NCBI GenBank assembly: GCA_024137785.1
Contig: JAHRHZ010000150.1
Coordinates: forward strand, 631,627-695,626
From: Ginglymostoma cirratum
Taxonomy: Eukaryota
Reading direction: 5' to 3'
Length of the DNA: 64,000 bases
In this document: one piece after another, positions 11,995 through 54,500 of the stretch
How the letters are laid out: every line of letters starts with the position of its first letter
Position numbering within the stretch: the stretch's first letter is position 1
Program-made: the position numbers and the translations under genes
The notes under the pieces: generated by a model
The model's database searches: none
Told to the model about the DNA's origin: nothing
The model's input: the letters and a program-made list of their open reading frames with translations, nothing else

Positions 11995-12468
11995 TACCAA
12001 GTCCCCTCCCCTTCCACAAAGGCTTATGTACCATCACCAAGTCACCCTTTTTTTATGTATGCATAATACAAAACACTGACCCAGCTAGCACAGAGCTAGT
12101 TCCTCTAGAACCCCTGACATAACAAGGTGTTGGGCTGGATGAACACAGCAGGCCAAGCAGCATCATAGGAGCAGGAAAGCTTGATGTTTCGGGCCTAGAC
12201 TCTTCATCAGAAAGAGGTCTAGGCCCGAAACATCAAACTTTCCTGCTCCTATGATGCTGCTTGGCCTGCTGTGTTCATCCAGCCCCACACCTTGTTATCT
12301 CGGATTCTCCAGCATCTGCAGTACCTTTTATCTCTGTTACAAAGAACCCCTGACACTCCTGTTAATATCTGTCAGCCAGGACTGCCTGATCAGGCCAGAT
12401 TAACAGATTTAATGAGGGCACTCATTTTCAGTGAGATCCATCTGGCTGACCTTGTTACAATCACTACA
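11995..12468 (-). mobile_element. Probable solo LTR, itself interrupted by a Penelope mini-element
   Basis: Non-low-complexity island inside the pyrimidine tract; reverse strand begins tgtagtgattgtaac (TG start); sequence rejoins across the TSD at 12107/12343. Confidence 0.45.
12120..12342. mobile_element. Fold-back Penelope pLTR mini-element (family A) with hammerhead core and 13-bp TSD
   Basis: ~90-bp near-perfect inverted arms centred near 12210; flanked by agaacccctgaca at 12107-12119 and 12343-12355. Confidence 0.85.
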
Positions 12469-12704
12469 GCTTCTTCCATTTTAACCCTCTCCCTGTGTCT
12501 CTGTAATCAGAACTCTCCCTTTTGTGCTCTCCATACACTCCCCCATTTCTCTGTATGAAACCCCATGCCTTTCCCAGTATTTACCCCTCTCCCTGTTCCC
12601 CTATATTCAGTCCTCACTCTATTACTCTCGATGTCACCCTCTCTAATCCCTTACATTTAACCGTCCCCCAATTACTCCATATTAAATACTCCATATTAAA
12701 ATAA

Positions 12705-12975
12705 ACTGCTGCCCCTCAGTGCCAGGGATGTGGGTTTAATTCCACTCTTGGGCAACTGCCTGTGCGGTGTTTTCTTTTTATCTCCCTACGTCAGCTGGAT
12801 TTCTTCTGGGAGCTCCGGTTTCCTCCCTCAGTCCGAAGACGTGCAGGTTAGGTGGATAAACCATGGGAAATGCTGGCTTGTAGGGGTGGGTCTGGGTGGG
12901 GTGCTCTTCCGAGGGTTGGTGTGGACTCGATGGGCCGAATGGCCTATTTCCACACTGCAGGGATTCTATGATTCC
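12705..12975 (+). mobile_element. HE1-type V-SINE
   Basis: tRNA-like head, V-domain core ctccggtttcctccctcagtccgaagacgtgcaggttagg, CR1-derived tail gggccgaatggcctatttccacactgcagggattctatgatt. Confidence 0.85.
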
Positions 12976-13569
12976 TTCTCTGCTCCAATGCATTCAAGCT
13001 TCTTCCCATTCCTCTCTATTTCCACACCTCCCTATTTCTTTATATTAAAATTCCCTCCCCCTCTCCTGAATTTAACCCTTTCCCTATTCCCATGTCTTCA
13101 GTCCCCCTCCTATTGAATCCTTTCGCAATTGCTTTGTATTACACTCTCTCCCCGTTTCCCTGTATCTAACCCTCTCACTATTACTCCACTTTTAATTCTC
13201 TCCCTGTATTTTATACTCTCACTATTACATTTTATTTAACCCTCTTCTTGTTTCCCTGCATTTAATCATCTTCCTATTATTCTCTATTTACCCTCTCCTT
13301 ATCATTGTCTCTTTAATCCTCTCCCCAAAATTCTCTATTCAATTGTCTCCCTATCATTCTGTGTTAACAATCTGTCTATCTGTACTTAATTTTCTGTCTT
13401 TCCCTTGTTCTCTTCAATTATTGTTCCCCGATCCTGAATATTTGCTCCGCTCCCACCCAGCCCAACGTCCGGAGCTGCGGCTGCAGATCTATTTCAAAGT
13501 ACAGAGGAAGCTTAACAGCAGCACCATACTGTCAAACATAGCATTGCAGACGGGTAGAAGAAAGGCGCA

Positions 13570-13910
13570 ACTTCAACGTACACACATAAACAGGAAAAGC
13601 TTCAAGACACAACAATTTTTGCGCGCAAACCGAAAAAGCTCCAACAAACAAAATTAATGTGCAAACGTGAACAGCTCTAATGCACAACAATGTTTGTTTA
13701 TAAACTAGAAGACGTCCAAGATACAACAATATTCATATATAAACTCGAACAGCAACTATACACAATATTTACATAGAATTATGAACAGTTCTAATGTACA
13801 ACAATACTGAGACACAAACATGATCAGTTCCAATGCAGAACAATACGTAAACGCAAACATCTCCATTGTGCAAGAACATTTATATATAAATATAAACACT
13901 TCCAATTCAC
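13570..13910 (+). repeat. Degenerate ~38-bp minisatellite
   Basis: Repeated (ga)acag(c/t)tc(t/c)aatg(c/t)acaacaat...aaac units. Confidence 0.7.
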
Positions 13911-15095
13911 ACCTTCCCACAAGAATGAGATCCCCTACTCCCAATTCCTTCTCTTCCGCCGCGTCTGCTCCCAAGATGGGGCGTTTCACTCCCGAACATC
14001 CTCTTATTTCAAGGACCGCAACATCCCCCCGTTCAGTGGTCGAAAATGCTCTCGGCATCTCTTGCATTTCTCGCGCCTCGGCATCACATCCCCTCCCCGC
14101 AACAAAAACAAAGACAGAATTCCCCCCTTGTCCTCACGTAGCACCACACGAAGCTCTGGATTCAACAGTATCATTCTCCAGCACTTCCGCCACCTGCAAT
14201 CTGACCGCACAACCATTTCCTTCCTTCCTTAAGGATATATTTCCTTCCCTACCCCTATCTGCCTTTGGTCGGGACCTCTCTGCCTGAGACTACCTCCTAC
14301 GCTCCACACTCCCCACCAGCCTCACCACCACTGGCACCTTTCCCTGCAACCAAAGGAATGCTACACCTGCCCCTACACCTCCCACCCTCACCTCCATCCA
14401 AGGAAGGGACCAAAAAAAAATTTCACATAAGACAGAGGTGTATCCACCAATGTGGCCCACTGCATCCACTGCTCCCGATGTGGCCTCCTGTACATCGGTG
14501 AGAACAAGCGGTGGCTCGGAAACCACTTTGTAGAGCACCTGCATTCCGTTCGCGACAAACGACACCTTCCAGTCGTGAACCATTTCAACTCCCTCTCCCA
14601 CTACCTGGGAAACATGTCCATCCTGGGTCTCCTCCAATGTCACAACGACGCCATTCAGAAACTGGAGGAGTAGCACCTCATTTTCCGCCTTGGGAGCTTA
14701 CAACCCAATGGTCTCAATGTGGACTTGACCAGTTTCAAAATCTCCCCACCCCTGCCTCATCACATGACCAACCCTCCCTCTCATCCCCGTCCCCTTGACC
14801 TGACACAACCTGTCCATCTTCTCTCCCACCTGTCCGCTCCTCCCACCTCACTGACCAATCCCCACCATTGCCTACCTGCACTCACCTATCACATTCCCAC
14901 TTATTTTCTCCAGCCCCACACCTCCTCTGTCTGTTTATTTTAGAGCTCCCTTCCCCTCCCCTATTTCTGAAGAAGGTCCCGACCCGAAATGTCAACTTTC
15001 CTGCTCCTCTGATGTTGCCTGGCCCGCTGTGCTCCTCCAGCTCCACGCTGTGTTATCTCTGACTCCAGCATCGGCAGTTCTCACTACCTCTGGAA
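13910..15095 (+). mobile_element. Penelope-like element 3' end (GIY-YIG endonuclease + pLTR with hammerhead core)
   Basis: CIHCSRCGLLYIGENKRWLGNHFVEHLHSVR..HFNS..HY..NMSILGLLQC; core ctgaaga(14967)...cccgaaatgtc in the pLTR. Confidence 0.9.
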
Positions 15096-15770
15096 TGTAA
15101 CCGCAGTTCTTTAGAATTCACTTCAAACTTCCGCAGTGACTCAATGATCCCTAAGAGCTGCTGGAAAATCACAGTACAGAAGGAGGCCATTCAACCCACC
15201 ATGTGAATTCACTTTAAAACGCCTCAGTCTTTCTCTTATCCCACAGAACCGCACGACGGTTAATGCACAGAAAGAGGTAATCCATGTTTGTGTCAACTGC
15301 ATAAACGATCTACTTGTTCTAATTCCACTTTACAGTACCTAGTCCACTGTTACTGACTTCAAATGCAGATCCAGATTCCCTTTAAACGAGTTGAGGGTTT
15401 CCACGTCAAACTCCCCAAATACGGCAGTGAATTGCGCACACATCACCGGCCTTTGTTAAGAAGGAATAGCCCTCAAATCCCTTGTAATCCTTACAGCAGT
15501 CAGCCTCATTCTATGTCACATGGTAAAATGTCCTTTCCATTCAGGCCGACAGGCCTGTAACCAAGACCCTGATTATTTTGTATACCTCAATCACATCACC
15601 TCATATTCCTCAGAAGAAGCTCTCCCTCTGATGCTGCTTGGCCTGCTGTGTTCATCCAGCTCTATACCTTTTTACCCCGTATTCCTCTCTGTTACAGGGA
15701 AAACAACCTTAGCCATGTCCAATTTCCCTGAATGCTGTGGAAATTTCCAAGCGCTAACAATGTTTTTGTT

Positions 15771-15899
15771 GAAAACCAAAGGAACTGCGGATGCTGTAAA
15801 TCAGGAACAAAAACAAAGTTGCTGGAAAAGTTCAGCAGGTCTTGCAGCATCTGTGGAGGAGAAAACAGAGTTAACGTTTCGGGTCCGGTGAGCCTTCCT
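15771..15899 (-). mobile_element. Penelope mini-element family B with hammerhead-like core and 13-bp TSD
   Basis: TSD caatgtttttgtt at 15758-15770 and 15900-15912; paralogous empty site caacgctcttgtt at ~18630. Confidence 0.85.
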
Positions 15900-16334
15900 C
15901 AATGTTTTTGTTAATCTCCGCTGTGCTTTCCCCAGAGCAATTTTGTCCTCTCTGTTATGTGGTGACCAGAACTGTGCCGAACAATACAGCTGTGAGCTAC
16001 CCAATATAATGTCTTCTGTAGTTCGAGTGTTACAGGCCTTGCGCGGGGTGAGGAAAATTGTTTTGGGTAACCTTCCGTTCTGGATGAGGGGGCAGTAATT
16101 TGTGGAGAGGTAAAATAAGACTTTTCCCAGTGTGGATATCGGGTCCGGATCTGGACCATATAATGTACCTGGAGGGGTGTAGTTTTGGAGTGTAGTCTAA
16201 TCGAAGTGTGGGGTCAGTTAATCAGTTGCTCAGGAGTACAACTACATGTTTAATCGTATCATGTCTGTTCTGATAGCAGCTGACGTCGTTACAAAACAAA
16301 TGGGAGCCCAGACGAAATCCTGCTTGACCGATCA

Positions 16335-16520
16335 CAATAAAAACCAAAAGAACTGCGGATACTGTAAACCAGGAAGAAAAACCGAAGTTGCTGGAAAAAC
16401 TCAGCAGGTCTGACAGCATCAGTGAAAAAAACGCTGAATAAAAAGTCTGCGAAGAAAAAAACACGTTAACTCTGCATTTTTGTCTTCACAGATGCTGCTA
16501 GACCTGCTGAACTTGCCGTA
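16335..16520. mobile_element. Family B Penelope mini-element, partial fold-back
   Basis: aaaaccaaaagaactgcggat...ctcagcaggtctg followed by inverted cagatgctgctagacctgctga. Confidence 0.7.
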
Positions 16521-16699: not shown

Positions 16700-19200
16700 G
16701 TGAAAGGTGTTTGGAGGTGATTTGAGGAAAAGGCTTTCAAACAGAGAGTAGTGGGGCTCTTTATGCACTGTTGGTTGGGGGTGGGGTTGTACTTGAGGAG
16801 GGCAGACTCACAACCTTTAAAAACTATTTGGTGAGCACTGGAGGCCACGAGCCTAGTGCTGGAACCTGGGACGAGTGTAGATTTAGTTTAACCGTGTCAG
16901 CACAAGTTTAATGGACCAAAAGGTCTCTTGTGTACCCTAGGGTTCTATGATTTTACGAATTGCATCTGGGAGGCAGGTTGGAAAGTTAAACATTTTAATG
17001 AAACAAATCAAAAAGCTGTGGATGCTGCAAAGTTCGAACAGAAACAGAAATAGCTGGATAAATTCAACACGTATGGTGACATCCGTGGAGAGAGAAACAG
17101 AGCAAACGTTTTGTGTCCTGAATCACTTTTCATCAGACCATGTTCTTCAGAAGAAGGGTCACTGGACTCAAAAAGTTAACTCTGCTTTCACTCCATTCCA
17201 GGCCACGTCAGTGCAAAAAAAGACTGTGATTCGGATCTAAAAGGGAATTGAAAGAACAAAAAAAAATGATGACGTTTGTCAGACCGCATTTAGCATGCCC
17301 GGTGTACTTCTGGTCACCATATTAGAAAAAAAACGTTAATGCACTGGAGAAGATGTAATTATTCGATGGAAAATGATAACAGAGCTGAGAAAGCTTGTTT
17401 CATCATGAAAGGCACAAGCCATTATCTCAGCCCACTCTGATAGGATACATTGAGGGTCTGCTGACTCATTGAGCCACTCATAGCTTGTCTTGGAAAGGAA
17501 ACGATCCCTTGACCTATTTGGCAAATGTTCTAATTTTGAATATGAATTGACTCAGCAAAACGTGCAAAATTTAAGTACAGAAATTGCATTCTCTGCATTA
17601 TCTGACTCAAATATTTTTGGCATACGCCTGAATTTTTTAAAGAGTAATGTACATAATGAAAAACCGAAGAAACCGTTCACTAATTTCAATTGATTGCTGC
17701 TGCTCCAATCTGTGTATAACGAAATATAATGTAAGGAAAATCCGTTCTCTCTGACTCCTTATTGTGTTCTGATCACATCAGGGATAATTAGCATTTGAAC
17801 TGATAAACTGAATACCCAACCATTCATATAGATAACGTGTAAACATGATTCCACAGCGTTTCTTTTTTTAAAAAAATCTTTATTTTAAATGGCAATAACT
17901 AAACAGGGTAAGCATTTTTAACGTAATGATCTAATTGATAAATTCGGATGCTCTAAACTCAGTTAAGTATTTTCCCTCCCTGTCAAGAATTATTTTATGC
18001 ACTGTAAAAATTATGAAGCTGCAAACACTTCTTCAGGCAGCAACTGGAAGTCGTCACAGCCCTCTAGATTCAATCTAACACTCCCCAAGTCATTCTACTA
18101 TCCCATAGAACCGCAGGAACGTTATGGCACCGGAAGGGGTCATTCAGCTTCATTGCGAATTCACTTCAACACTCCTCAGTCAATAGCTGTCGCAAAGAAC
18201 CGCAGGAAAGTCATGCTAGAGAAATAGATTGAGTTAACTCAATAAACTAGATTTCTGTTCTAATCCCACCACCTGGTCTACAGCCCTGAAGGTTTCTTCA
18301 CGTCAGTTGCAGATCCTGATTCGTTTACATCAGTTGATGGTTGCTGCCCCAAGCCCCCCAAACTGAGCAGTGAATTCCGAACACAACACCACCTTCTGGA
18401 TGGAAAGGTTGGGCCTCATGTTCCCTACAACCCTTACAGGAATCAGCCTCACTCTGTGTTCTCTGCTCCGTTCTCTTTTCTCCGTTCGGGGAAACAGGTG
18501 TGCATCCCACAACCTCGTTAATTTTTTACTCCTCAATCACATGACCACTCAATTTTTCTCTATTCTGCGGAAAACGACCCTAACCTTTTCCAATCTTCCC
18601 TCAATGCTGCAGCAACTTCCAAGCGCTAGCAACGCTCTTGTTAATCTCTTCTATACTTTCCCCAGAGCAATTCTGTCCTCATTGTGAAGTGGTGACCAAA
18701 GGTGAGCATCGAACCGCAGCTATAAGCTACACAATGTCTTTTGTAGTACTGGTGTTTCAGATCTGGCAGGGATTGAGGGAATTTGTTTTGGATTGGATCA
18801 GGTCCAGGGTCAGGAGGGTAGTAATTTGAGGAGAGGTAATTATGGAATTATTTTTCAATGTGAATGTCAGGTCACGCTCTAGGGTATACAATGCATCTGG
18901 ATGGGTGTATTTGGGAGTGTCTGGTCGAAGCGTGGGGTAAGTTAATCAGTTACCCATGTGTTAGATTATGTGTTTAATAGGCTTACATCTTCTCTGTCAC
19001 CAGAAATGTAATTAAAGAACAAGTCAAACCGCAGACAGAAGTCCAACTTCATGGATCTCAATCTTATTTGTTTTTGGTTTTAACAAAATTATCTCTCTCT
19101 GAATCATAAACGCACAAAGTTGCAAATTTTGCTTCAACATCACCAGAAAAGTTTATCGCAAAAGAAATGATAATGGAATAGAATAATCTATGCTATGTAT
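16700..19200 (+). repeat. Segmental duplication copy C
   Basis: 16700-18690 collinear with 4400-6420; 18050-19200 collinear with 15110-16650. Confidence 0.85.
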
Positions 19201-21334: not shown

Positions 21335-22670
21335 TAAGAACATGAAAAAAACGGGAGAAGTCCATCTGTCCCCTCAAGCCTGCTGCACCGTACAATAAAA
21401 TCATGGCTCATCTTCTCATGGACTCAATTCCACTTACCTTCCACTCACCACAATCCTTAATTCCTTTAGCATTCAAAAATCTATTTACCTTTGACTTAAA
21501 AAAATGCAACAACATAGCTTCAGCTGCTTCACTGGGCGGGGAATACCATAGATTCACAATCCATTCGTGAAAAAGTTTCTCCTAAATCTGCTCCGCTTAC
21601 TCTGAGGCTTTGCCCCAGTGGAAATGCCAGTGGAAACAACTTGCCTTCTTCTATCTTATCTATTCCATTCATCATCTTAAATGTTTCCTTAACATACACC
21701 CCCGTCCCCATTTCTTCTAAATTCCAGTGAGTGTAGTCCCAGTCTACTCAATCTCTCTTCATAAACCACCCATTCCAGTGCAAGTACGTCCATTCTCAAG
21801 TAAGGTAAAAAGTAAAACTTAATATGTTGATAAGTTTGAAAACCCAATTCTCCTGCCTTCTTCCCATAAACCTTTATCCTATTATCAATTAAGAACCTAT
21901 CTATCTCTTCCTTAGAACCATCCAGAGGAAGTGTCACTCGATCCAAAACATTAACTGTGATTTCACTCCGCAGATGCTGCCAGAGTTGCTGAGCATTTCC
22001 AGCAACCTCTGCTTTTGTTTCTGATTCACAGCATCCGCACTTTTATGATTTTTACCTATCTATCTCTGTCTTAAGTGGACTCAGTGTTTTGGATTCCACA
22101 GCCTTCTCCGGCAATGGGATCCACAGATTCAGCTCCCTCTGGTTGAAGAAGTTCCTACTTATTGTAAACAATAAAGCGTTATCCTTTTTTCTCTGAGGCT
22201 CTGTCTTCTGATCGTCGTCTCTCCTACCATTGGAAACATCTTGTCCATGTCCAGTCTATCCAGGCCTCCCAGTATTCTGTAAGCTTTAATGAGATTTCCC
22301 TCTTTATGCTCCTAAATCCAATCAGTGCAGACCCAGAGTTGTCAATGGCTCCTCATGTGACAAGTACTTTATCCCTGGGCTCCTTCTTGTAAACCTCTCT
22401 GGACCTCCTCCAATGCCAGCACATTCTTCTGTATATATGGGTTCCACAACTGCTCACAATATTCCAAATACAGCCTGTCCAGAGCCTTATACAGTTTCAG
22501 CAGTATGTCCTAGCCCTCTTTTAAAACATGCTAACATTGCATGTGCCTTCCTGACGCCAGCTGAACGCTGCACGTTAACCTTAGGAGGGTACTGAACTGA
22601 GAATCCGAAGTCACTTTCTGCTTCAGAATTCCAAGACATTTCCCCACTTTAAAAAAATGCCTCCACCTCT
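21335..22670 (-). mobile_element. CR1 LINE 3' fragments (two, tandem)
   Basis: YEERLSRLGLHSLEFRR and ETFKMMNGIDK motifs; CR1 tail reversed at ~21340. Confidence 0.8.
21909..22053 (+). mobile_element. Family B Penelope mini-element with 14-bp TSD (degenerate hammerhead)
   Basis: TSD acctatctatctct at 21895-21908 and 22054-22067; body cagatgctgccagagttgctgagcatttccagcaac. Confidence 0.8.
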
Positions 22671-27353: not shown

Positions 27354-27544
27354 CTGTAAGAGTGAAAAGAGATATTAAAGAGAAAAGCTAGATATTATTG
27401 AACAAATGTACTCCATGCCTGAACCCATGACTGATTTATTCTGTTTGAAAGGCTTAACTCTGACCAGCAGCATTTATCATCTGATCTCATACTATCGAAA
27501 TATCGCATCTAAACCTCGGAGTTATGCATCCTCAGAAGTATTTT

Positions 27545-27785
27545 CATTACTGGAAAGGTTTTGAACTTCAGGATTTTCTGAAGCTGGAAGGTCGGGTTGG
27601 GGGTGTGGGAGAGGAGTTTGGTTTGTTCTGTTATCCAATTCTGACTGCCACTTCAACATACCACCTTGTCACATGGCCAACATCTTGGTCTCAGGCTTAC
27701 TGCAGTGCTCCAGTGAAGCTCAGGACAAAGTTGGAGAACAACACCTCCCAAAATGCATCACCCTACATTTATCTGGATTAAATAT
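27545..27785 (+). mobile_element. Decayed Penelope GIY-YIG fragment (GPCR intron)
   Basis: Resembles PLE ..VSGLLQCSSEAQ.KLE.QHL. Confidence 0.55.
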
Positions 27786-28088
27786 GATTTGCTATTTCTC
27801 CACTCAACGTTTCAGTTGATCTATGTAATCCTGCATCATTTCACATCCTTCCTAACTGTTCACAATGCCACCAATCTTCGTGTCATCTGCAAAATTACTA
27901 ATCAGACCATCAACAATTATCAAAATCACGTACTTAAATTATAAACAGAATTCACAGTACTCTGATCTGTGAAAAACCACTGGCCACCAACCTCCAATTA
28001 GAAATATATCCCTCCATAACAATGCCCTACCTTCTATAACCTAGAAAGTTTTGTATCCAACTTGCCAAACACCACGCAGTAAAATGGA

Positions 28089-28230
28089 CAAGAAGCGATT
28101 TCTGATGAAGGGTTTAGGCCCGAAACGTCAAGTTTTCCTGCTCCTATGATGCTGCTTGACCTGCTGTGTTCATCCAGCCCCATGCTTGTTATCTCGGATT
28201 CTCCAGCATCTGCAGTACCTTTTATCTCTG
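28089..28230 (+). mobile_element. Family A Penelope mini-element with intact hammerhead core and 15-bp TSD, inserted in a CR1 fragment
   Basis: TSD acgcagtaaaatgga at 28074-28088 and 28231-28245; gattt-CTGATGA-a-gggt-ttag-gccc-GAAA-cGTC-aagtt. Confidence 0.9.
28097..28134 (+). ncRNA. Minimal type I hammerhead ribozyme (Penelope family A)
   Basis: CUGAUGA 28102-28108, stem II GGGU/GCCC, GAAA 28122-28125, palindromic ACGU stem III, GUC cleavage triplet, stem I GAUUU/AAGUU with wobbles. Confidence 0.75.
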
Positions 28231-30025
28231 ACGCAGTAAAATGGATTGTGATTTAACCTTCTGGACCAAACTACCAGGACGAACCGGATCAAATGCCTTA
28301 ATAAAGTCCATCTTGACAACAGCCACTGTTTTACCCCCAGAAACCTTCTTTGCCTTTGGTTTCCCTTGTGCGAATATTTGTAACCAGAGGGCATAAAATT
28401 CCAGCAAGAGCCCACTCATTTTAAGACAAATACAAGGATGAATTTCTTTACTCAGAGTATAATGAATCTGTGGAGTTCCCTACTACAGAGGACTGTCGAG
28501 GCTGGGTCATTCAGTATATTTACAGCAGGGATGAGCAGATTTTAATTAATCAGGGAAACAAGGGTTACATAGCAAAGACAGAAAAGTAGAGTTGAAGGTT
28601 ATCAGATTAGCCATGATCTCGTTGAAGGGCAGAGCATTCTCGATGGGCCAAATGGCCAAATTTCACTCCTACGTCACATGGTTTTAACAGGGGCAATAAA
28701 CGAAGATCAGACCCAGCTATTTCTAAGTGTCATACGTTGTAGAGATGGACACCCTTGCTTGAGTTTGTATGCAGAATGACTCTTCCCTGCGTCTGTTCCA
28801 AATTAATTCCAGTGCCATGCTTTGTCCAGATCGACAAAAATCAAAAGTTATCACTTCAAGTTTTTCTCTCTCTCTCTCCATCTATCGTTTACTCCTTACC
28901 CCTACCCTAACCCTGTGTGCTGCACTAAAAAAAGACATTTTTTCGTCCTAACTACCATCAATTCTCATTAACGGTCACCTGACACGAAACGTTAACTGAT
29001 TCATCTTCATAGGTGCCAAACTTGCTGAGATTTTCCAGTAATTTCAGTTTTTGCTTTGTTTGTTTCTGACTTGTGGATAACAACGAAAAGTGAAAACTCC
29101 TGACAGGGTCTGATTCAGCGCTCAGGCACAGTCAAGGGCATTGTGTAAGCATCTATGAGATTCCACAACCAACGGAGCAGAATGAAAATCTGCAGTCGTG
29201 CCGTAGCATTCGTGATTTGTCGTGGACATTTGAATCACAATATAAAATGAGGTGGATTCACAAAAAAACCCCTCCATCCTCAATGACTATGAAGCAAGCA
29301 CAGCACTTTAAAATATGAAGCTGAAACATTTGTAAATTCTTGCGGACAATAATATCGATATCTAAGGAAGAAGGTACTTAACACTGAGGGAGTACAGCGG
29401 AAGTTCACTAGGCTGAAACCGGCGATGAGAGGACTATTTCATGAGGAAAGATTGGCACAAATGGAGCTTCTGAACAGGACTAGACTGACTAGATGCGGGG
29501 AGATGTTTCCCGTGGTTAAGGAGTCTGGGACCAGGGGTAACTATCCAGGATATAGGGTAGACCATTAAGAACTGAGCTGACGAAAATGCCCTGATCCCAG
29601 CGTCTACACTGCCAGACATACCTAATAAATGTGAGCAACTGAGATCAGGCGTTTTTCTCCAGTTTGTGACCGATACTCAGTCCGACACCACTCTTACAGA
29701 TAATGCCAATATTTTCTAAATTTTCTAACTCAGCAGTGAACCAAAGTCTTCACTGACAGAAATTTCTGCAACTGGTTCTGCAATTGATCATGAACAGCGC
29801 AATAAACAAGAGAACATATGGCATCCATGAGACATCAAGAGCAAAAGATAAACTTAAGAACACATGGTAATAGGATTGAATATTCTTTCATTCTCGTCAA
29901 AGAAGTAGTGACGTTGGTCTCGTTCGCGTATACTTTGTACACAGTAACGATTACCTGTCAGAGCAGAAAATCACAAAATTTGGACCCCACATATTTACAC
30001 AACTCGAAGGTGAGTAATGACTTAC

Positions 30026-32389: not shown

Positions 32390-33010
32390 AAGATAGTAGG
32401 AACTGCAGATGCTGGAGAGTCCGAGACAACAAGATGCAGAGCTGGATGAACACTGCAGGTCAAGCAGCATCATAGGAGCAGGAAGGCTAACGTTTCGGGC
32501 CTAGACCCTTCATCAGAAATGGGCTGGAGATGCCGGCGCATTGCTGTGAGTGTCTGTTTCGGGAGTCACAGGGAGAAACACTTCTCAATGTTCTGAATGT
32601 AGATATTGTCACTGTTGGGGCCATATTGGGAAGGCTTGAATGTGGATTGTAGTCCTTTGGGGATGATCTGGTTCTGTAGGCAGGTACTAAGAAAGGTGAT
32701 GTGGCTGTAGTACCTGGTTTGCTTCAGGACATGGTCGAGCAGTTTCAAGACCGAAGAGATTATGAGAGAGTTGCAGTGGGAGAGAGATCCCCTGAGGTTT
32801 GTCCGGAGGGAGGAGGGTAACTTCTTCAGGGTAGGCATCCTTAGAAGAGGCTTCGCAGTGGGGTTAAAATTGTATCAGAGATAGTAGGAAATGCAGATGC
32901 TGGAGAATCCAAGACATGAAGGGTCTAGGCCCGAAACGTCAGCCTTCCTGCTCCTATGATGCTGCTTGGCCTGCTGTGTTCAGAATTTTAATCTCTGCAC
33001 CTTGTTGTCC
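32390..33010 (-). mobile_element. Internally deleted Penelope element: inverted pLTR piece + 5'UTR/ORF N-terminus + pLTR with hammerhead
   Basis: ORF 32838-32566 (MPTLKKLPSSLRTNL...HVLKQTRYYSHITFLSTCLQNQIIPKGL) sits between family A pLTR copies; hammerhead core at 32487-32520(-); ccagatta on both flanks. Confidence 0.8.
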
Positions 33011-33651
33011 CAGATTATGGTTTATTCCCTTTGACCTCAAATTTACAAAGCAGACTGAGAGAGATATGATAAAATGTGCCTTTAAGAGAGATATGGCTGC
33101 CCTGGTTCACTAGAAGAGACGTGTTGTAAATCTGGTACTTAGCTCCATGGAAAGCAACTTAAAAAGCTTTGTTTTTAATTTAACAATAGAAGCATGAGTG
33201 TGTGAAGTCAGGCTCAGACAGACCCGTGGTTTTAGTTTTGCTTTCAGTTGTTGAAGACGTAGTTTTGGGAGGACGGAGGAGCAAGATACAGCTCTCTCCA
33301 CAAGTTGAAGTTTATTAATTCAAAGGTAGTTATCTCAGGAATGCTACCAGCGCCACTAGCTATTTCAGAGTGGAAACAGCAAAATGCATAGGATTGACAC
33401 ATACGAGAAAAATTGGTGTTTGTGGAGGGTTTCAGATTCATGGGACATTGTGACTGGTTCCAGGGGAGGTGGGTCCTGTGCAAACTGGATGGGTTACGTG
33501 TGGGTAGGACCAGGACTGATGTTTTGGAGGCATACTTCGTAGATTCATTGGAGAGGGTTTAAACTACTGAGGCAGGGGGATGGAAACCAGAGGAGTAGGG
33601 TAGTAATTACAGAAATTGAGGGAGAGGTGGAAACCAAGGCAAAATTCATTA

Positions 33652-33970: not shown

Positions 33971-36550
33971 ATCAATATGAATAAAGGAATGAACAAGAAC
34001 AGGCAGGGAAACAACTGTAAAGAACAGGGAATGTGGTCTGAAACGAATGTGTTTCAATGCAAGAAGTATAATAGGCAAAGTAGATGAGCTTAGAGCTTTG
34101 GTAAGTCCTTGAAACTATGGCATTATTGCAATTACAGAGACTTGGCTGAAAAAAGGCCAGGTCTGGAAGCTGAATATCCCTGATTTTAGATGTTTCAGGT
34201 GTGATAGAAAGGGAGCGAAAAAGAGGTGGGGGAGTTGCATTACAGGTAAGGGAATATCTCACAGCTGTACTGAGCGAGAATACATCCAAGAACGCGTGCA
34301 ACAAGGCAATATGGGTAGAATTCAGGAACAGGAAAGGCGAAATCACAAGCTGAGGGTATACTATAGGCCTCGAAACAGCCATCAGGAAATCGAGGAGACA
34401 ATATGTAGACAGCTTTTGCAAAGTCGTAAAAACAGCAGGGTTGTTGTGGTGGGTGATTTTAACTTCCCCTACATTGACTGGGATTCAGTATGTGCTAGGG
34501 TCTTGGATGAGGCTGAATTTGTAAGAACCATTCGGGACAGATTCTTGACTTAATGTGCAAACAGTCCAACCAGGGAAGGGGTTATACTGCAACTGGTTTT
34601 GGGAAATGAACTCGGCCAGGTGAGTGAAGTTTCAGTGGTGGAGCATTTCAGAAGTGGTGATCATAATACTGTAAGTTTTAAGATACTCATGGATAGGGAT
34701 AATAGCAATCCTCGGGTGAAGGTGTTAAATTTGGGGAAGGTGAACTACAACAATGTTAGGCAGGCCAAGGAGAACTTTGATTGGAGGCGGCTGTTTAAAG
34801 GTAAATCTGCATCTGACTTGTGAGCATATTTCAAATGGCAGTTGATAAGAGTTCAGGAGTGGCAAGTTCCTGCAGGGGAAAGAATAGGTATGCAAGTTAT
34901 GTGAGCCATGGCTGATCAGGGATGTTATGACCTTGGCCAGAAAGAAAAAGGAAGCGTGCATAATGTCTAGGAGGATGCAAACTGATGACATCCTTGAAGG
35001 AGATAAGCAAAATAGGAAAGAAGTAAAACAAGGAATTGGAAAGTCTAAAAGGGATCATGAAGTATGGTCAGCAAACAGGATTAAGGAGAATCCCAAGGCG
35101 TTTTAGGTACATATAAAATATAAGAGGGTAGCCAGAGAAATGATTGGCCCACTCAAGGGCGAAGGAGGGAATCTATGTGTGGAATCAGAAGATGTAGGTG
35201 AGGTCCTAAATGAATATTTTGAATTGGAATTCACCAAAGAGAAGGAATTGGTGGAGAATGATTTCAAGGGAGGGAGTGTCGAGTTTCTAAGCCAAGTTGC
35301 TATTAAAAAGGTGTTGTGCGACTTAAAAGGCATTTAGGTAGATAAATCCTTGGGACCTAGTGGGATCTATCCCAGATTGGGGTGGGGGGAGCGGGAAGGT
35401 AAGAGAACAAACTGGTGGAGCATTGACAGACACCTTTGTATCCTCTTTGGCCATGGGTGAGGTACCAGAGGGCTGGAAAATAGCCAATGTTGTCCCCTTG
35501 TTTAAGAAGGGTAGCAGCCATAATCCTGGAAATTACAGGCCTGCAAATCTCACATCAGTGATAGGAAAATTATTGGAAAAAATTCCCAGGGACAACATCT
35601 ATATGCATTTAGAAGCAAAAGGATTTATTAGCAATAGCCAGCATGGTTTTTGTGCAGGGGAGGTCGTACATTACTAACTTGGTCAAATTTTTGGAGGGGA
35701 TGACAAAGGATATTGATGAGGGGAAAGTGGTTGATGTTGTTTACAGGGACTTCAGTAAGGCCATTGACAGGGTACCTCATGGCAGACTGGTACAAAAGGT
35801 GAAGTTACATGGTATCAGGGGTGAGCTGGCAAGATGGGTAAAGAACTGGCTTGGTCATAGGAGACAGAAAGTAGCAATGCTTTTTTGGAATGGAGGGCTG
35901 TGACGAGTGGTATTCGACAGGAATCAGCGCTGGGATCTCTGCTGTTGGTGATCAACATAAACGATTTGGAGGAAAACGTAGCTGGTCTAATTTGTAAGTT
36001 TGCGGATGATCCAAAGATTGGTGTAGATGTGGATAGAGAGGAGGATTGTCAGATGATACAGCAGGATATAGATCAGTTGGAGGCATGGGCAGAAAAATGG
36101 CAGATGGAGTTTAATCCGGACAAATGTGACATGATGCATTTTGGAAGGGCAGTGCATGTGGAAATTGTATGGCGAATAGCAGAAGCCTTGGGGGTATTGA
36201 TGTGCAGAGGGATCTGGGTGTACAGATTCGCAGATCACTGAAGGAGGCAACGGAGGTTGATAATCAACCAAGTTAATAAAAAAAGGCTTATGCTATGCGT
36301 GCCTTCATCGGAAAGGGCATTGAGTTTAGGGATAGACAAATCACGCTGCAGCTTTATACAACTGTTGTTTGGCTATACTTGGAATATTGCATATAGTTCT
36401 GGTCACCACACAACCAGAAGGATGTCGATACTTTGGAGAGGGTACAAGGATGTTGCCTGTTATGGGGGATTTTAACTATGAAGAAAGGTTAGATAGACTG
36501 TTTATTTTCACTGGATTACAGGACGCTGAGGGGCAGCCTAATAGAATTTT

Positions 36551-36656
36551 GGATAACAAGCCTGGGGCTGGATGAACACAGCAGGTCAAGCAGCATCATA
36601 GGAGCAGGAAAAACTTGACGTTTTGGGCCTAGACCCTTCATCAGAAAATCTGATAA
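36551..36656 (-). mobile_element. Family A Penelope mini-element with 11-bp TSD
   Basis: TSD aatagaatttt at 36540-36550 and 36657-36667; hammerhead GAAA mutated to AAAA. Confidence 0.85.
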
Positions 36657-37239
36657 AATAGAATTTTATCAGATTGTGATAGACATGGATAGAGTGGAAA
36701 GTATGAGACATTTGCCCACTGCAGAGGGGTCATTTACTAGGGGACACAGGTTCAAGGTGGCATGATGGGAGTTTAAAAGAGATGTGCGAGGTAAGCTTTT
36801 CGCACATAGGGTGATGAGTGCCTGGAACACGCTGCTAGAGGAGGTGGTGTAAGTAGACACAATAACTGCATTCAAGAAGCACCTAAATGAATACATGAAT
36901 AGGAATGGAATAGAGGGATATGGATCCTGAAGGTGAAGATAGTTTTAGTATGGAAGGGGAAAATGTGTTGGCAAATGCTTGGAGGGCTTTAGGGCCTGTT
37001 CCTGACCTGTAGTTTTCTTTGTTCATTGCTTTCTGTTCTTTGTTTATTGTTATTTGTTCTCTCTGTTGATGCAACAAAACTTGAGATCTCTTTCTGCTGG
37101 TAGATTATTTCTTTCAGTATTTTGTTCTCACAGATTAAGGTGAAGACATTGCATGTGTCGCTGAATTTTCTCTTGCCAAGTGTGTGTTAATGGGATCCTG
37201 CAATATTGAAACAGTTGATTTGAGCTGATGTGAGTAAAT

Positions 37240-49025: not shown

Positions 49026-49548
49026 TGCCTCTGACCCCAGGGATATTCAGGTCTTATTGTCCACCATCAGATGATTGATGTTCAGGGCACATTTTCTGTG
49101 ACCAGGTTAAGATTCAGAGAATATGGAGGACAGATGGCGGAATTCAGCACGTCTCTTCATTCTCAGTGCTCTGTGAGAAGTCTACTGTCAATCACAATCT
49201 CTCCTTGATCTTGAACCATAAACTACAGAATCATTTCCCTTCACTTATTTACTCAAATATCTTTTAATGACATTATTAAATCTGCTTCTAGAATCTTGTA
49301 TCCAACAACTAATTGTTCCTCACATGGAAAATCTCTTCTCCCCCACTCTCAGGGCCTCCTCCCACAAGCTGATCCTATTCACATTTAGTGGAAATCAGTG
49401 TCTCTGATGACTGTCCTTTAACCGACTGGAAACACACTCCCCCGTTTCCCGAAAAGAAACATTTCCGTATTCTGGGCAGTGCAAATTGATCTCCCCTTAA
49501 TCACTCCTGCATTACAGAATGTTAAAACAGGTTGATCGAAAGTTAAAC

Positions 49549-49745
49549 CAGGAACAAAAACAAAGTTGCTGGAAAAGCTCAGCATGTCTGGCAGCATCTG
49601 TTAAGTAAAAAAACAGAGTTAACGTTTCGGGTCTGCTGACCCTTCCTCAGAACTGATGCTGCCAGATCTGCTGAGCTTTTCCAGCAACGTTGTTTTTGTT
49701 CCTGATTTACGGCATCCACAGTTCTTTGGTTTTTGATTTTATTTA
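49549..49745. mobile_element. Fold-back family B Penelope mini-element with 11-bp TSD
   Basis: Inverted arms (caggaacaaaaac...ctggcagcatc / gatgctgccag...gtttttgttcctg); TSD gaaagttaaac at 49538-49548 and 49746-49756; absent from the paralogous site near 56185. Confidence 0.85.
49617..49654 (-). ncRNA. Minimal type I hammerhead ribozyme (Penelope family B)
   Basis: AGUU-CUGAGGA-A-GGGUC-agca-GACCC-GAAA-CG-UU-AACU: perfect 4-bp stem I, 5-bp stem II, palindromic stem III. Confidence 0.8.
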
Positions 49746-50507
49746 GAAAGTTAAACTACATCAGCCTATCACTAGATTTGCAACACAGTGAACTTAAAAT
49801 ATTCACCGATCCTTAAAATTGTTCAATTGTTCATGACCAGAATTTAATCTGATTTTAGGTACAGAGTTTATAACTTAGACAAATATTAACAATTTCCTGT
49901 TAAGAATGCCACCTCAACGGAACGCAGATGAATAAGACAGTTTAATTAATTTCAATGATCTAAGCTCAATCGTCTTAATTATAAAATCCCATTCACACAC
50001 CAACAGACAGACAGCCACAATTAATGGATAAATTAACAAAGAACATCAAACAACTGTAAATTACCAGTTCAATTGCAATTTTAATGAAGAATACCAAACT
50101 GTTGTGAAATTCTTTGGCAATATGCTTTATTATAGGCGTGTGGAAGTCTATATTTTCCTTCAAATCCAAATGACTGGTCAATGCAAATAACCCTGGAACT
50201 GTAGACTTTCACGTATTTGCCACAGGCTGGGTTGCTTCTCAGAACGTTAAATATGTCAATAACAATTGATTATCTGGAGAGAGCAAAACCGAACAAGAAC
50301 TTCGCAGTCTAGCGTCTTCCCAAACTAAAAAAGAACTGCCTCATACCCAAAAAAGCCTAGTAAAAACTATTTCACTCACTGTTTTCCCTTTATTGTTCAG
50401 CATTCTCTGTGATGGATTGGCCAACACCGATCCTCTCTAAATTTAACAATTCAACGTCCACCAACTCCCAGTCTTTGTATCGTCCATCAACCTACCAATT
50501 CTCCCAG

Positions 50508-50605
50508 CGAGATAACAAGGTGTAGAGTTGGATGAACACAGCAGGCCAAGCAGCATCAGAGGAGCAGGAAAGCTGACGTTTCAGGCCTAGACCCTTCTTC
50601 AGAAA
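50508..50605 (-). mobile_element. Family A Penelope pLTR fragment with hammerhead core
   Basis: gagataacaaggtgtagag...gctgacgtttcaggcctagacccttcttcag. Confidence 0.8.
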
Positions 50606-50629: not shown

Positions 50630-53000
50630 TTTTTCTCGAAATCATTTATGTAGATCATGACCAACAGAGGTCCCAGCACTAACCCTGAGGAACATTACTA
50701 GCCACAACCCTCCATTCCAAAACAAAACATCCTTCCACTGCTACCCTCTGTCTTCTAAGACTAAACTGCTTCTGTATCAAACTTGCCAGCTCACCCTTGA
50801 TAACATATGGCTTCACCTTTTGTGTCATGACAGACCTTGTCAAAGACTTTACTGAGCTCCATGTAGACAACATCAATAGCTTTTCCCTCATCAATTATCT
50901 TTGAAAACACCTTAAAAAAAACTCGATCAGTCAGGCACGACCTCCCCCACACAAAACCATGCTGTCTGTCTCTAATCAGTTCATTTGCTTCTAAATGCTT
51001 TTACATATTGTCCCTGAGAATCTTTTCCAATAATTTCTCTACAGCTAATGCCAAACTCACAGAGCTGTGATTTCCTGGATTATCCCCGCTTTCCTTCTTC
51101 AACAATGGAAAAACATTAGCTTTTCTCCAGTCCTCTGGGACCACGCCTGTGGACAAAGAGGATACAAGGATGTCTGTCAATGCTACAGCAAATTGTTCTC
51201 TTGCCTCCCTTAATATTCTGGGATAGATCCCACCAGGACCTGGCAAAGTATCTACCTTAATACTTTTTAAGATGCATAACAGCTCTTCCTTTTTAGTAGC
51301 AACTTGTCTTAGAAATTCAACATTCTCTCCATGAAATCACCCTCCACCAATTCCTTCTCTTTGGTGAATACTGATACAAAGTATTCATTTAGGACCACAC
51401 TTACCTCTTCTGGCACACATAGATTCCATCGTTTGTGCTCGATGGGTCAACCCTTTCCCTGGCTATCCTATTGCTTTTTATACGTGCATAAAAAAATCAT
51501 TGGGATTCTCGTTAATTCTGTTTTCTAATGACATTTCGCGATCCTTTTTGCCCTGTGTTAGTTCTTTCCTACTTTCCTTATAGACTTCAAAGGCTTTGTA
51601 AATTCCCATCCTCCAAGACCATACATATGCTTCCATTTTCTTTATGACCAACGTCATAACATCCCTGGTCATCCACGGTTTACGTAACTTGTCATACCTA
51701 TCCTTGATTCTCGCAGGAACATGCCGCTTCTGAACTCTTATCATCTGCCGCTTGAAAGGTTCCCACATGTCTGAGTTACCCTCAAACAGCCACCTCCAAT
51801 CAAAACTCCCCACTTCCTGCCTCGTATTGTTATAGTTCGCCTTCGCCCAATTTAACACTTTCATTCAAGGGCTACTGTTAGCCCTATCCACGTGTGTCTC
51901 AATACTCATGGTATTGTGGTCACTCCTCCCAAAATGCTCCTCCAATGAAACTTCCCTCACCTGGCTGGGCTCATTTCCCAAAACCAGTCTTGGTATAACT
52001 CCTTCCCTGTTTGGGCTGTTGACATGCTGCGTCAGGAAGCCAGAGATAAAAGGTACTGCAGATGCTGGAAAATCCGAGATAACAAGGTATGGGGCTGGAT
52101 GAACACAGCAGGCTAAGCAGCATCGTAGGAGCAGGAAAGCTTGACGTTTCAGGCCTAGACCCTTCATCAGAAATAGGGGAGGGGAAGAGGGTTCTGAAAT
52201 AAATAGGGAGAGAGGGGGAGGCGGATAGAAGATGGATAGAGGAGAGGATAGGTGGAGAGGAGGCAGACAAGTCAAAGAGGTGGGGATGGAGCCAGTAAAG
52301 GTGAGTGTAGGTGGGGGGTGGGAGGGTAGGGAGGAGATAGGTCAGTCCAGGGAGGACGGACAGGTCAAGGGAGCGGGATGAGGTTAGTAGATAGGAGATG
52401 GGGGTGGGGCTTAAAACCATGTTTCTGTTTTGCAGGGAAATAGCTACAGGAGAGACCTGTATTGCTTATTTAGCACCCCCCCCCGCTCTGCTTGGATGTG
52501 GCCCATTATCTTTTGCTGCCTGTGGAATCTTGATTCTGCGGTGTGATCACCTCTCTATACGCACTATCCATGACACTCTCTGCCTCGTGAATACCTCACA
52601 ATGTCGCCACACACCACTCCAACTAAGAAAATCGGGTGGTCCAGGAGTTATAGCTAGAGACACTTGCACACAGGCAAGTCCTGGGCACTGTAAATGTGCC
52701 CGGCTTCCCACATCGAACAATAGGAGCAGGTTATGATTTGAAGCTCTCCTGTCATGTCTTACCCCTTTAATTTAATTAATCCTTACATTGTCAAATGCTT
52801 TTAATACTAAATTGAAGTTGCTGATGCTCTCTGCTCCGATAAGAATTTCTCAAAACTTACCTGTTACTCACCAAAAGCAATTTCTAGAAACAGTTTAGGC
52901 TCGCACTCCTTTACCCAATGGAACTCTCACTGCCGACTTTGCTCTCACAATGTTCCAGCTCCTCTCCTCCGAACCTTGCCTCTTTTTTTGAGTCAGAGGA
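50630..53000 (-). mobile_element. CR1 LINE 5' portion (5'UTR, ORF1 zinc finger, ORF2 part), interrupted by a Penelope pLTR
   Basis: ORF1 start MTGELQIITCSYCSMWEA..CKC at ~52755; LVLGNEPSQV..EHFGRSDHN; PGPGGIYPRILREAR; VPEDWRKANV. Confidence 0.85.
52040..52412 (-). mobile_element. Family A Penelope pLTR with hammerhead core
   Basis: Matches 14720-15095 reversed; core at ~52140-52175. Confidence 0.85.
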
Positions 53001-53169
53001 GGAAAGAGGAATGGAAACTCTACAGAAATGTAATGTTTGGGGCTAACCGTTCCTTAATAACAGGTTCTTCCACGATACCCTCGACACTCGCACAGACTGC
53101 AAAGTCCACTTGCAGAAAATAAACAAATGATGTCTCAGCGCCCTATGGTTGGACCTGAAGTTGTTTTTT

Positions 53170-53585
53170 CTGCGCAGACACACTATCAAACATTTTATTT
53201 CAGACCAGAACACCTCGATTTATAAAAGGCTGTCTTCGTCTCTCAATTACATATTCAATTAATCATCTTCCATCATCTTCAGTTCTAATCTCTTGTTACT
53301 GCCAACTCAACTGATGAATTGGCTTTGATTATCTTAAGTATACAATTTGAAATTTTGCCCTGCTATTAATGCTGTCCTGCTAACTATCAATCCAATGAGT
53401 CACTGAGAAATAAAGTAAGGTGGAGTTAAATTTTCACAGCAAATGGTGTCTGGGGAATAAGATAGCAAGAGGGTATGGTGTTTTAAATCATATGCAGCAG
53501 AGAAATTGCCTCCACAAGTGTCATTGAATTGCATGCCGTTCACAGACGGAGCCAGTGACAGATGACAGGATCATGATGCATGAAG
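53170..53585 (+). pseudogene. Orphan TRBV promoter and leader stub (ATGATGCATGAAG) truncated at a Penelope element
   Basis: Collinear with 54520-54925 and 58020-58436; ATG at 53573; Penelope sequence begins at ~53586. Confidence 0.8.
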
Positions 53586-54500
53586 GGGTAGTGGGAACTG
53601 CCGAAGCTGGGGAAACTGAGATAACAAGGTGTACAGCTGGATGAACACAGCAGGTCAAGCAGGATCGGAGGAGCAGGAAAGCTGACGTTTCGGATCTAGA
53701 CCCTTCTTCAGAAATGGGGGAGGGGAAAGGGATTCTGAAATAAGTCGGGAGAGAGGGGGAGGCAGATAGAAGATGGGTAAAGGAGAAGGTAGATGGAGAG
53801 GAGACAGATAGGTCAAGGAGGCAGGGATGGAGCCAGTAAATGTGAGTGTAGGTGGGGAGTTAAGGAGGGGATAGGTCAGTCCAGGGAGGACGGACAGGTC
53901 AAGGCGGCAGCATGAGGCTGATAGGTAGGAGATGGGGTGGGACTTGAGGTGGGAGGAGTGGATAGGTGGGAGGAAGGACAGGTTACGGAGGCGGGGACGA
54001 GGTGGGATGATATTGGGATGCGGTTGGGGGAGGGGAGATTTTGAAGCTTGTGAAGTCCACATTGATACCATTGGGCTGCAGGGTTCCCTGCAGGAGAATA
54101 TTCAAGGAGAATATGAGTTGCTGTTCCTGCAACCTTCAGGTGGCATCGTTGTGGCACTGCAGGAGGCCCAAGATGGACATGTCGTCCAAGGAGTGGGAGT
54201 TGAAATGGTTCGCGAATGGGAGGTGCAGTTGTTTAGTGCGAACCGAGTGAAGGTGTTCTGCAAAGCGGTCCCCAAGCATCCGCTTGGTTTCCCTGATGTA
54301 GAGGAGGCCACAACGGGAACAGTGGATGCAGTATACCACATTAGCAGATGTGCAGGTGAACATCTGTTTGATGTGGAAGGTCTTCTTGGGGCCTGGGATG
54401 GGGGTGAGGGGGAGTGTAGGGGCAGGTGTAGCACTTCCTGTGGTTGCAGGGAAAAGTGTTGGGGTTGGTGGGGCTGGTGGGGAGTGTGGCATTCGTCCCA
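53586..54500 (-). mobile_element. Penelope 3' end (GIY-YIG + pLTR with hammerhead core)
   Basis: FTCTSANVVYCIHCSRCGLLYIRETKRMLGDRFAEHLHSVR; core at ~53680-53715. Confidence 0.92.

Follow-up and report, generated by a model that had tools for sequence, protein, structure and literature searches.

Short hammerhead-bearing inserts of Ginglymostoma cirratum as probable end-pieces of two coding Penelope-like element families

The window, by which we mean the whole 64-kb stretch of G. cirratum DNA that was analysed, carries short inserts of two hammerhead-bearing families, A and B, described in the initial annotation as mobile mini-elements. Element positions (e.g. -4, +127) are numbered from the C of CUGA, and target-site duplications are abbreviated TSD. 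The inserts and related fragments are as follows, hairpins being given without a single strand.

4762..4935: hairpin insert of family B, decayed, its arms (+14..+114 and -1..+46) placed head to head
12107..12355: hairpin insert of family A, the minus-strand arm with core 12183-12210 spanning -3..+95 and the plus-strand arm +9..+127, 13-bp TSD 12107-12119 / 12343-12355
12739..12974, plus: old family B-related body fragment from the endonuclease/3' UTR region (-698..-433), without a core
14304..15091, plus: 5'-truncated family A copy with variant stem II, comprising a broken GIY-YIG, 3' UTR, core 14967-14993 and tail
15625..15684, plus: family A tail fragment, +40..+99
15758..15914, minus: family B stub, +1..+132, C3 mutated in core 15872-15901, TSD 14/15 bp
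16339..16514: hairpin of family B, decayed and coreless, whose arms span +47..+131 and +25..+74
17005..17189: another decayed hairpin of family B, its arms spanning +14..+129 and -2..+41
21895..22067, plus: decayed family B stub, +2..+133, 14-bp TSD
28074..28245, plus: the best stub of family A, whose element 28098-28229 spans -4..+127, core 28102-28129 intact with predicted cut after 28129, 9 nt of G-terminated filler ahead of -4, 15-bp TSD
28870..29051, plus: decayed family B copy, about -89..+93
32391..33016, minus: family A composite of an inverted arm (+98..+5), 5' body (+82..+487), then -7..+125 with core 32489-32516
36540..36667, minus: family A stub, -3..+92, G12 lost in core 36617-36644, 11-bp TSD
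49538..49756: family B hairpin insert, one arm on the minus strand with intact core 49621-49650 and end +94, the other on the plus strand (+48..+131), 11-bp TSD
50509..50605, minus: family A stub, -3..+93, intact core 50575-50602, TSD not found
52042..52412, minus: 5'-truncated family A copy keeping the predicted promoter, -232..+127, core 52143-52170
52174..52205, minus: predicted core promoter of the preceding copy, its function suggested by sequence, with a TATA-like hexamer at 52200-52205 (-35) and, at 52174 (-4), an initiator-like A with which helix I begins
53589..54489, minus: family A copy truncated at its 5' end, with a remnant of GIY-YIG coding sequence, the 3' UTR, core 53684-53711 and tail

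All eight family A cores lie where they had been placed initially, with the stems claimed for them, and the decay of family B near 4890, 17150, 21925 and 28975 is confirmed. The sequence CUGANGA-A...GAAACGUC is retained in four of the eight (28102-28129 on the plus strand; 50575-50602, 52143-52170 and 53684-53711 on the minus strand); the others read GAAAUGUC (14967-14993, plus), GAAACAUC (12183-12210, minus) and GAAACGUU (32489-32516, minus), or have lost G12 (36617-36644, minus). Both family B cores of the list lie on the minus strand. Five of the six TSDs reported as exact are so (12107/12343, 13 bp; 21895/22054, 14 bp; 28074/28231, 15 bp; 36540/36657 and 49538/49746, 11 bp each), and the sixth, 15758/15900, matches at 14 of 15 positions. 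Head-to-head hairpins had been overlooked at 12114-12335, 49555-49734, 4762-4935, 17005-17189 and 16339-16514, as had the composite structure of 32391-33016 and the B-related body fragments described below. The core pattern matched 39 times in the first 390 kb of usable genomic sample against 0-2 times in five shuffles, and duplications scoring at least 9, counted in flanks only, accompany 32 of 163 inserts against 1-2 with shuffled pairings. An Rfam scan of the window returned no hammerhead family up to E=5; four weak miRNA/snoRNA matches were discarded as chance.

The proposed minimal, dimer-type hammerhead anatomy is borne out: the CUGANGA and GAAA core, an extra base between 9 and 10.1, the palindromic ACGU and a NUH triplet were all found. 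Among 80 family A and 50 family B copies, selected by regular expression with up to one change per box, N7 is variable and CpG sites are decaying. In counts uncorrected for kinship, helix II pair 2 of family B is GC in 30 and AU in 6 of 44 copies, and pair 4 of family A is UG in 60 copies and UA in 15. Helix I pair 3 differs between the families (UG versus GC), yet U-C occurs in 29/71 family A copies. The hammerhead-competent dimer is predicted at -5.1 (A) and -16.3 (B) kcal/mol against minimum-energy folds of -28.8 and -24.2, and folding z-scores of the monomers are weak (-0.4 to -1.3). In vitro, insertion of a related element was unaffected by hammerhead mutants (Frangieh et al., 2024, PMC11167929).

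Families A and B are the ribozyme-bearing ends (pLTRs) of two Penelope-like elements (PLEs) encoding RT and GIY-YIG, in agreement with the Penelope origin and the mobilisation by PLE RT/GIY-YIG that had been suggested. The full-length layout is hammerhead, ~100-nt module, tail, ORF (ATG near +165), RT, zinc-finger linker, GIY-YIG, 3' UTR and the hammerhead module again, the 5' terminal module continuing into the body in 18/25 family B and 36/39 family A loci. Family B had been thought to lack linked coding sequence. Within the window this stands, the B-related body fragments there (12739-12974, 27642-27747, 61513-61741) all being unattached to a core; elsewhere in the genome it does not, RT and GIY-YIG being linked to the family, with scores at or below the Pfam cut-offs (RVT_1 at locus L121, E=1.4e-6; GIY-YIG at L023, E=1.3e-4). 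At family A locus L126 both domains, again scoring at or below the cut-offs, lie inside one stop-free stretch. DKG and YIDD motifs are present in the RT + GIY-YIG coding copies, and the two families show the hallmarks of EN+ PLEs: 5' truncation, an inverted 5' copy, an optional 30-40 bp tail and a TSD. The linker that separates RT from EN reads CNRRKCYTC in family A and CKQRKCNTC in family B; a CX2-5CxxC linker is a feature of the Neptune/Nematis clades according to Craig et al. (2021, PMC8557442), and this motif suggests a Neptune/Nematis-type assignment for both.

Insert ends were placed, to within +-3 nt, by aligning sequence locally with 34 natural reference copies; the 773 kb of genome used were drawn systematically, but half of their bases are masked and they are perhaps unrepresentative. 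The sample holds ~260 inserts per Mb, extrapolating to ~1.1 million genome-wide, with a median length of 129 bp. As the initial annotation had supposed, the ends are not random: 33/104 family A and 36/95 family B 5' ends fall 0-8 nt before the CUGA core (-8..0), with Poisson P of ~1e-12 and ~1e-15 against local background. Its further suggestion that they are set by self-cleavage is not supported: within +-4 of the predicted cut lie only 5/104 and 8/95 ends (7.0 and 6.5 expected). The 5' cluster is ~30 nt upstream of that cut and the 3' ends are 60-100 nt downstream of it; one family B copy (L213, -192..+30) has an end that coincides with the predicted cut. Near-full-length copies behave alike, with 13/36 measurable 5' ends of family A in -9..-1 and 7/18 of family B in -5..-1, one end in each set bordering masked bases. 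Stubs and near-full-length copies have in common 5' ends at ~-4, 3' ends at ~+92 or +127/131 and TSDs of 9-18 bp. In public data, contigs of four studies end at -3 in family A and contigs of three runs at -3/-4 in family B, marking copy boundaries rather than RNA ends, as all 14 runs consist of contigs; one run, X14, may belong to the same study as the assembly. An exact TSD lies nearby in only 23/54 single copies that start at the edge. In many family A stubs the core is preceded by TTTT, not ATTT, and 15/73 end in ATTTT or TTTTT.

A TATWWA hexamer occurs at -35/-36 in 19/22 long family A copies, with one other match in all 22; in family B an exact TATA box lies at ~-33 in 5/12 copies, with 5 scattered matches elsewhere. 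In both families the TATA-like box stands 29-31 nt above the A of a YYANWYY motif, the initiator consensus. Near-full-length copies begin ~30 nt below the box, on this initiator-like A, which is thus the predicted transcript start. Since stubs start downstream of the TATA box, they are probably dead on arrival; their template may be the 5' module of the full-length mRNA, or RNA from a promoter in 3' pLTRs. Among non-templated family A cases, G stands at -5 in 10/15 (P=0.003, post hoc), an excess expected from cap copying; family B shows no such excess (6/17, P=0.35, in a set that includes loci found with a junction-bearing query). No downstream promoter element could be made out by eye at +28..+32, and a bacterial promoter scan, of a type not applicable to this DNA, found nothing. 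TATA plus initiator in a pLTR was earlier proposed for a rotifer element (PMC8557442; PMC3846280), but the promoter of D. virilis Penelope is internal and TATA-less (PMC2377424), which counts against the predicted TATA start.

The 3' ends are bimodal, at ~+92 and ~+127/131, in agreement with the two internal RT start sites and the tail described by Frangieh et al. (PMC11167929). Neighbouring inserts are arranged head-to-head in 39 cases and tail-to-tail in 2. One long and one short arm are combined in 32/36 hairpins (17.9 expected, P=9e-7), and in 17/32 each arm has sequence missing from the other, so that fold-back of one cDNA cannot make these. Hairpin junctions differ between copies; a clonal hairpin or 500-nt family was rejected on the differing junctions.

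We consider it likely that the short inserts are end-pieces of the two autonomous RT + GIY-YIG families, formed when RT primes inside uncut RNA and runs off at the predicted 5' end, 4-5 nt before the core. The TATA box at about -30 and the initiator at -4 would direct Pol II to make a capped transcript that opens with the initial base of helix I. The protein would nick both target strands and prime them on a single RNA, at +92 for one strand and at +127/131 for its partner; a single surviving cDNA would leave a 95- or 130-bp stub, and two cDNAs joined end to end a hairpin of head-to-head arms, only one of which has the tail. A cDNA reaching the RNA 5' end could jump to the 3' repeat, so regaining the TATA box and with it the pLTR, or could land at an internal site, giving deleted two-ribozyme units; the composite at 32391..33016 likely arose by run-off and a subsequent template jump. 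The ribozyme would be copied uncut, and cutting would strip the cap and ~32 nt, with a speculative regulatory role. As the left edges lie at the predicted RNA start and not at the cut site, the inserts are likely dead by-products of copying rather than a new self-cutting class.

If instead the RT of ordinary 3'-primed, 5'-truncated copies stalled at the 5' edge of a hammerhead that is folded, and perhaps dimerised or bound by protein, the pile at -4 would require no RNA end there. Such stalling would account for the exact coincidence of -4 with the first helix I pair in both families, and for a truncation rate that is higher inside the module (~0.006-0.008 per nt) than upstream of -50 (~0.001-0.002). 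We nevertheless regard it as unlikely: a structure should block RT on entry, at +33, not after unwinding, in the predictions the hammerhead fold lies well above the minimum in energy, the TATA-like box stands at canonical spacing, and a third PLE family of the genome crosses its own hammerhead freely, with no pile there and 10/11 copies reaching upstream. Still less probable is that the boundary at -4/-2 marks a 3' splice site, like that of D. virilis, stubs being copied from spliced RNAs and hairpins made by self-priming. The D. virilis intron end does map to the 5' end of helix I (PMC4209133), family B has what resembles a branch point, a pyrimidine run and an AG at -4/-3, and self-priming is proposed for head-to-head structures in PMC3846280, but an AG is missing from the family A boundary and 17/32 hairpins require two RNA-templated primings. 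Moreover, TSDs lie mostly within ~10 nt of the boundary and distant ones do not exceed the control level, which means that no upstream exon came along. We rank splicing as the least probable of the readings considered.

The proposal of a retrozyme-like non-autonomous RNA class, spreading as 100-230 bp units whose ends are set by self-cleavage, appears very improbable. It would fit the predominance of inserts of at most 260 bp (139/163, 85%), the cores with variable N7 and paired stems kept, and the recurrence of ~500-nt two-ribozyme units (3/39 5'-body copies, with 23 other loci among 40 scored spanning a similar junction). Against it, ends show no excess at the cut, both families have coding parents that end at the same points, short and long copies share the common ribozyme variants, the TATA-like box is absent from stubs, and all four 500-nt junctions read differ, as do those of the hairpins. 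Among 200 sampled inserts there were no tandem arrays; 4 same-strand neighbours lie within 100 bp, and one of these, on inspection, is a true head-to-tail dimer of ~100-bp units (L219), which would suit such a class. No stub-only lineage was seen among the 130 cores compared, although some rare variants occur in short copies only. A separate class of this kind is therefore not upheld.

The inserts have close counterparts among known elements. Like EN+ PLEs of the Neptune/Nematis type as described by Craig et al. (PMC8557442) and Arkhipova et al. (2013, PMC3846280), they derive from elements that have an RT followed by a C-terminal GIY-YIG, with a CX4CxxC linker and pLTRs, and show heavy 5' truncation, an adjacent inverted truncated copy, a 30-40 bp tail at one end only and TSDs; they differ from the elements described there in their extrapolated number, their short median length, the sharp helix I boundary and the rule of one start site per arm. 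With the minimal type I hammerheads of metazoan PLEs (Cervera and De la Pena, 2014, PMC4209133) they share the missing helix III loop, palindromic 15.2-16.2, the extra base between 9 and 10.1, G10.1-C11.1, a short helix I, and the occurrence of pairs on opposite strands and mostly of single motifs "probably related to truncated PLEs"; here, in contrast, helix II has only 4-5 bp and the first base of the ribozyme is the predicted RNA start. The Poseidon element PAc of Anolis (PMC11167929) likewise has two internal RT start sites bounding the tail, nicks and extends both strands and uses uncut RNA as template, but its ORF starts within the hammerhead, which here lies in the 5' UTR, and the assignment of one start site to each strand is deduced here from hairpins in the genome. 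Metazoan non-LTR retrozymes (Cervera and De la Pena, 2020, PMC7229834; Li et al., 2026, 10.64898/2026.07.22.740005) also have type I hammerheads, noncoding short copies and an origin from PLE pLTRs, but form tandem repeats whose units are cleaved out as circles, with canonical ribozymes in the 2020 paper; ours lie scattered, singly or as inverted pairs, and have minimal cores and ends away from the cut. Our search of the open literature found no description of these cartilaginous-fish families, of a helix I start site or of paired priming.

The inserts are thus a known kind of element that gives a useful mechanistic clue, and the notion of a new mini-element class does not hold. Questions stated as open in the literature on PLEs concern the origin of pLTRs, inverted copies and tails and the role of the hammerhead (PMC8557442; PMC11167929; PMC3846280). 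A wider reading, which we offer tentatively as a possibility short of an even chance, would be that the mRNA starts at the first base of the ribozyme, that a dimeric protein uses one RNA to prime the two target strands at two 5' UTR sites, and that a strong-stop cDNA jump to the 3' repeat rebuilds the promoter, the pLTR acting like a true LTR; misdirected jumps would give ~500-nt two-ribozyme units, retrozymes at birth, and the dimer-only ribozyme would be a dose-dependent decapping switch. About one million natural insertions, by extrapolation, argue against the ribozyme defining the ends of the element, and they lead to the predictions that transcripts start, capped, at -4 and that each target strand uses one RT start site.

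The hammerhead cores and target-site duplications (TSDs) that the initial annotation had claimed for the window are present, with some corrections to individual copies. The core pattern gave 39 matches in the first 390 kb of the usable sample and 0-2 in shuffles, and an Rfam scan of the window returned no model matching its hammerheads. The core of families A and B is of the minimal hammerhead type given in PMC4209133, where single motifs from truncated Penelope-like elements (PLEs) and opposite-strand pairs already appear. Covariation in the A and B hammerheads appears modest, and the active dimer is predicted to lie 8-24 kcal/mol above the minimum-energy dimer. This prediction is in line with the low activity reported for minimal hammerheads (PMC4209133) and with cleavage helped by protein (PMC11167929). 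The supplements of these papers and of 10.64898/2026.07.22.740005, which covers one chondrichthyan genome, may already contain A or B motifs or ends.

Several other features lie in the same window:

26443-27387, minus strand: intact rhodopsin-family 7TM ORF, 314 aa (Pfam 7tm_1, E=2e-19)
55198-55707, plus strand: Ig V-type exon, T-cell receptor V-like (by resemblance)
58958-59338, plus strand: Ig V-type exon, T-cell receptor V-like (V-set, E=7e-12)
62985-63929, plus strand: LINE remnant (RVT_1, E=4e-32)
34113-34553 and 35861-36241: LINE remnants

A related Ig V segment may be present near 61830-62200, and we take the LINE remnants in all three intervals to be CR1-like. Elsewhere in the genome, PLEs are found inside or beside other PLEs at the fetched loci L056 (two copies), L067 (4005 onward) and L213 (1724-4290), the nested cases being A in a third PLE family, B in that family and A in B; these suggest a preference for PLE targets.

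Abundance was estimated from 160 segments, each 10 kb long and taken at fixed round coordinates along 40 large contigs of the host assembly (4.36 Gb in 289 contigs), which is probably that of a cartilaginous fish; 827,052 of the 1,600,000 bases were masked. The 772,948 usable bases hold 200 tail-bearing inserts (~260/Mb), which extrapolates to ~1.1 million genome-wide. Leaving out 37 of 219 inserts (window included) that abut an edge or masked bases, 163 sample inserts were kept, with a median length of 129 bp (139 are at most 260 bp). A TSD score of at least 9 was obtained for 48 of the 163; these TSDs are 9-18 bp long (13-15 bp in 30) and 66% A+T.

Both families have coding parents in the genome. 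Several of the 30 fetched B-core loci extend upstream through a common UTR and five have plus-strand GIY-YIG matches; in longer copies of either family, RT and GIY-YIG are both present. The A and B ORFs share 68% identity over 1.7 kb and a CX4CxxC linker, a type that PMC8557442 gives as a Neptune/Nematis mark. Counting from the C of CUGA as 0, the ORF starts at ~+165 with MPTLKK in both families, and the hammerhead module stands at the start of near-full-length copies, continuous with the body, at 18/25 B and 36/39 A loci; the ribozyme is therefore present twice, once in the 5' UTR and once in the 3' terminal module (pLTR). An Ala/Thr/Pro-rich repetitive insert precedes the RT in the A ORF (L232:900-1200, element orientation); it is absent from B and variable among A subfamilies. 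A long inverted B structure (L111/L112, G000:C70:1944294-1949252) has RT segments on both arms, which are 98% alike over a 201-base query.

The short copies had been proposed to be a retrozyme-like class with ends set by self-cleavage. After the predicted cut, the downstream product would begin at +28 in A and at +30 in B. Of the tail-bearing fragments (104 from A, 95 from B), 33 and 36, respectively, have their 5' ends in -8..0, and 5 and 8 have them at most 4 nt from the cut, where the background is 7.0 and 6.5 per 9 nt. The ends are thus non-random, as proposed, but they pile up away from the cleavage site, which stays at background. The 3' ends are bimodal, with 36 at +90..99 and 46 at +120..129 for A, and 44 at +85..104 and 30 at +125..134 for B. 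Ten fragments end 3' in -10..+59, one of them bounded by masked bases and one, a single B copy (L213:4763-4983), at the predicted cut. Near-full-length copies begin at the same position as the short inserts (13/36 A in -9..-1, 7/18 B in -5..-1). In contigs from public runs, loose A ends occur at -3 in 4/4 runs (59, 30, 75 and 12 contigs) and loose B ends at -3/-4 in 3/4 runs, among the matches listed; these are copy boundaries, not RNA ends. The reading of the short inserts as end-pieces of PLEs, as opposed to units delimited by cleavage, is well supported and we regard it as very likely.

Two-ribozyme units also exist. In the window (32391-33016) body position +487 is joined to -7, and a similar +490-type junction is spanned by 23 other loci among 40 scored; its recurrence at 3/39 loci picked solely by their 5' body marks +490 as a preferred acceptor. 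The junctions of the window copy and of three others read (L313-L315) are all different, and two of these copies consist of a hammerhead, ~500 nt and a hammerhead. The acceptor at ~+490 resembles a motif in the tail. At another locus (L219:4253-4458) two ~100-bp A inserts form a head-to-tail dimer with a core in each, a possible retrozyme seed. Such units and the dimer could give circles if read through, and nothing in our data shows their propagation.

The pile of 5' ends points instead to a predicted transcription start at -4. TATWWA occurs at -35/-36 in 19/22 long A copies, which measure 0.5-2.4 kb, and the 22 together contain a single match elsewhere; in B it lies at ~-33 in 5/12 copies, with near variants in the rest and five scattered matches. 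In both families a TATA-like box stands 29-31 nt upstream of an A at -4 in YYANWYY context, read here by the general TATA/initiator consensus and spacing. Helix I begins with this same A. In A inserts with intact -4..-1 the base at -5 is C in 20, G in 10, A in 3 and T in 2; among the non-templated bases, G is over-represented (P=0.003, post hoc), which copying of a cap would predict. B has no G excess at -5. An unrelated third PLE family runs through its hammerhead in 10/11 copies, so a hammerhead alone is no barrier, though this family has its own RT. Its loci (L036, L056, L067, L089, L154, L159, L162, L179, L186, L211) have a longer-stem minimal hammerhead, GIY-YIG upstream and a TATA-like box at ~-47, and their 5' ends do not accumulate at the ribozyme. 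For a rotifer element, a TATA box and an initiator within the pLTR have been proposed before (PMC3846280), and D. virilis Penelope has an internal promoter without TATA (PMC2377424).

Simple inverted pairs make up 37/163 inserts, and neighbors at most 100 bp apart are head-to-head in 39 cases, tail-to-tail in 2 and same-strand in 4. Both arms extend into the tail region in 36 such hairpins; in 32 of these, one arm ends at +113..133 and the other before +110 (17.9 expected by independence, P=9e-7); the shorter-tailed arm ends at +85..105 in 27 of the 32. In 17 of the 32 it extends beyond the long-tailed arm by 10 nt or more on the 5' side, which means that in those neither arm can be copied from the other. 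Junctions vary between inserts, and a diagnostic base is common to both arms in 7/8 testable hairpins. Tails on one side only are already known (PMC8557442, PMC3846280). One long and one short arm, varied junctions and matching diagnostic bases fit a single RNA that would be primed twice, once on each target strand, in agreement with the two start sites and extension of both strands shown for PAc (PMC11167929). Run-off of cDNA from an uncut RNA starting at about -4, with paired priming at two tail sites, is probably how the short inserts of both families arise.
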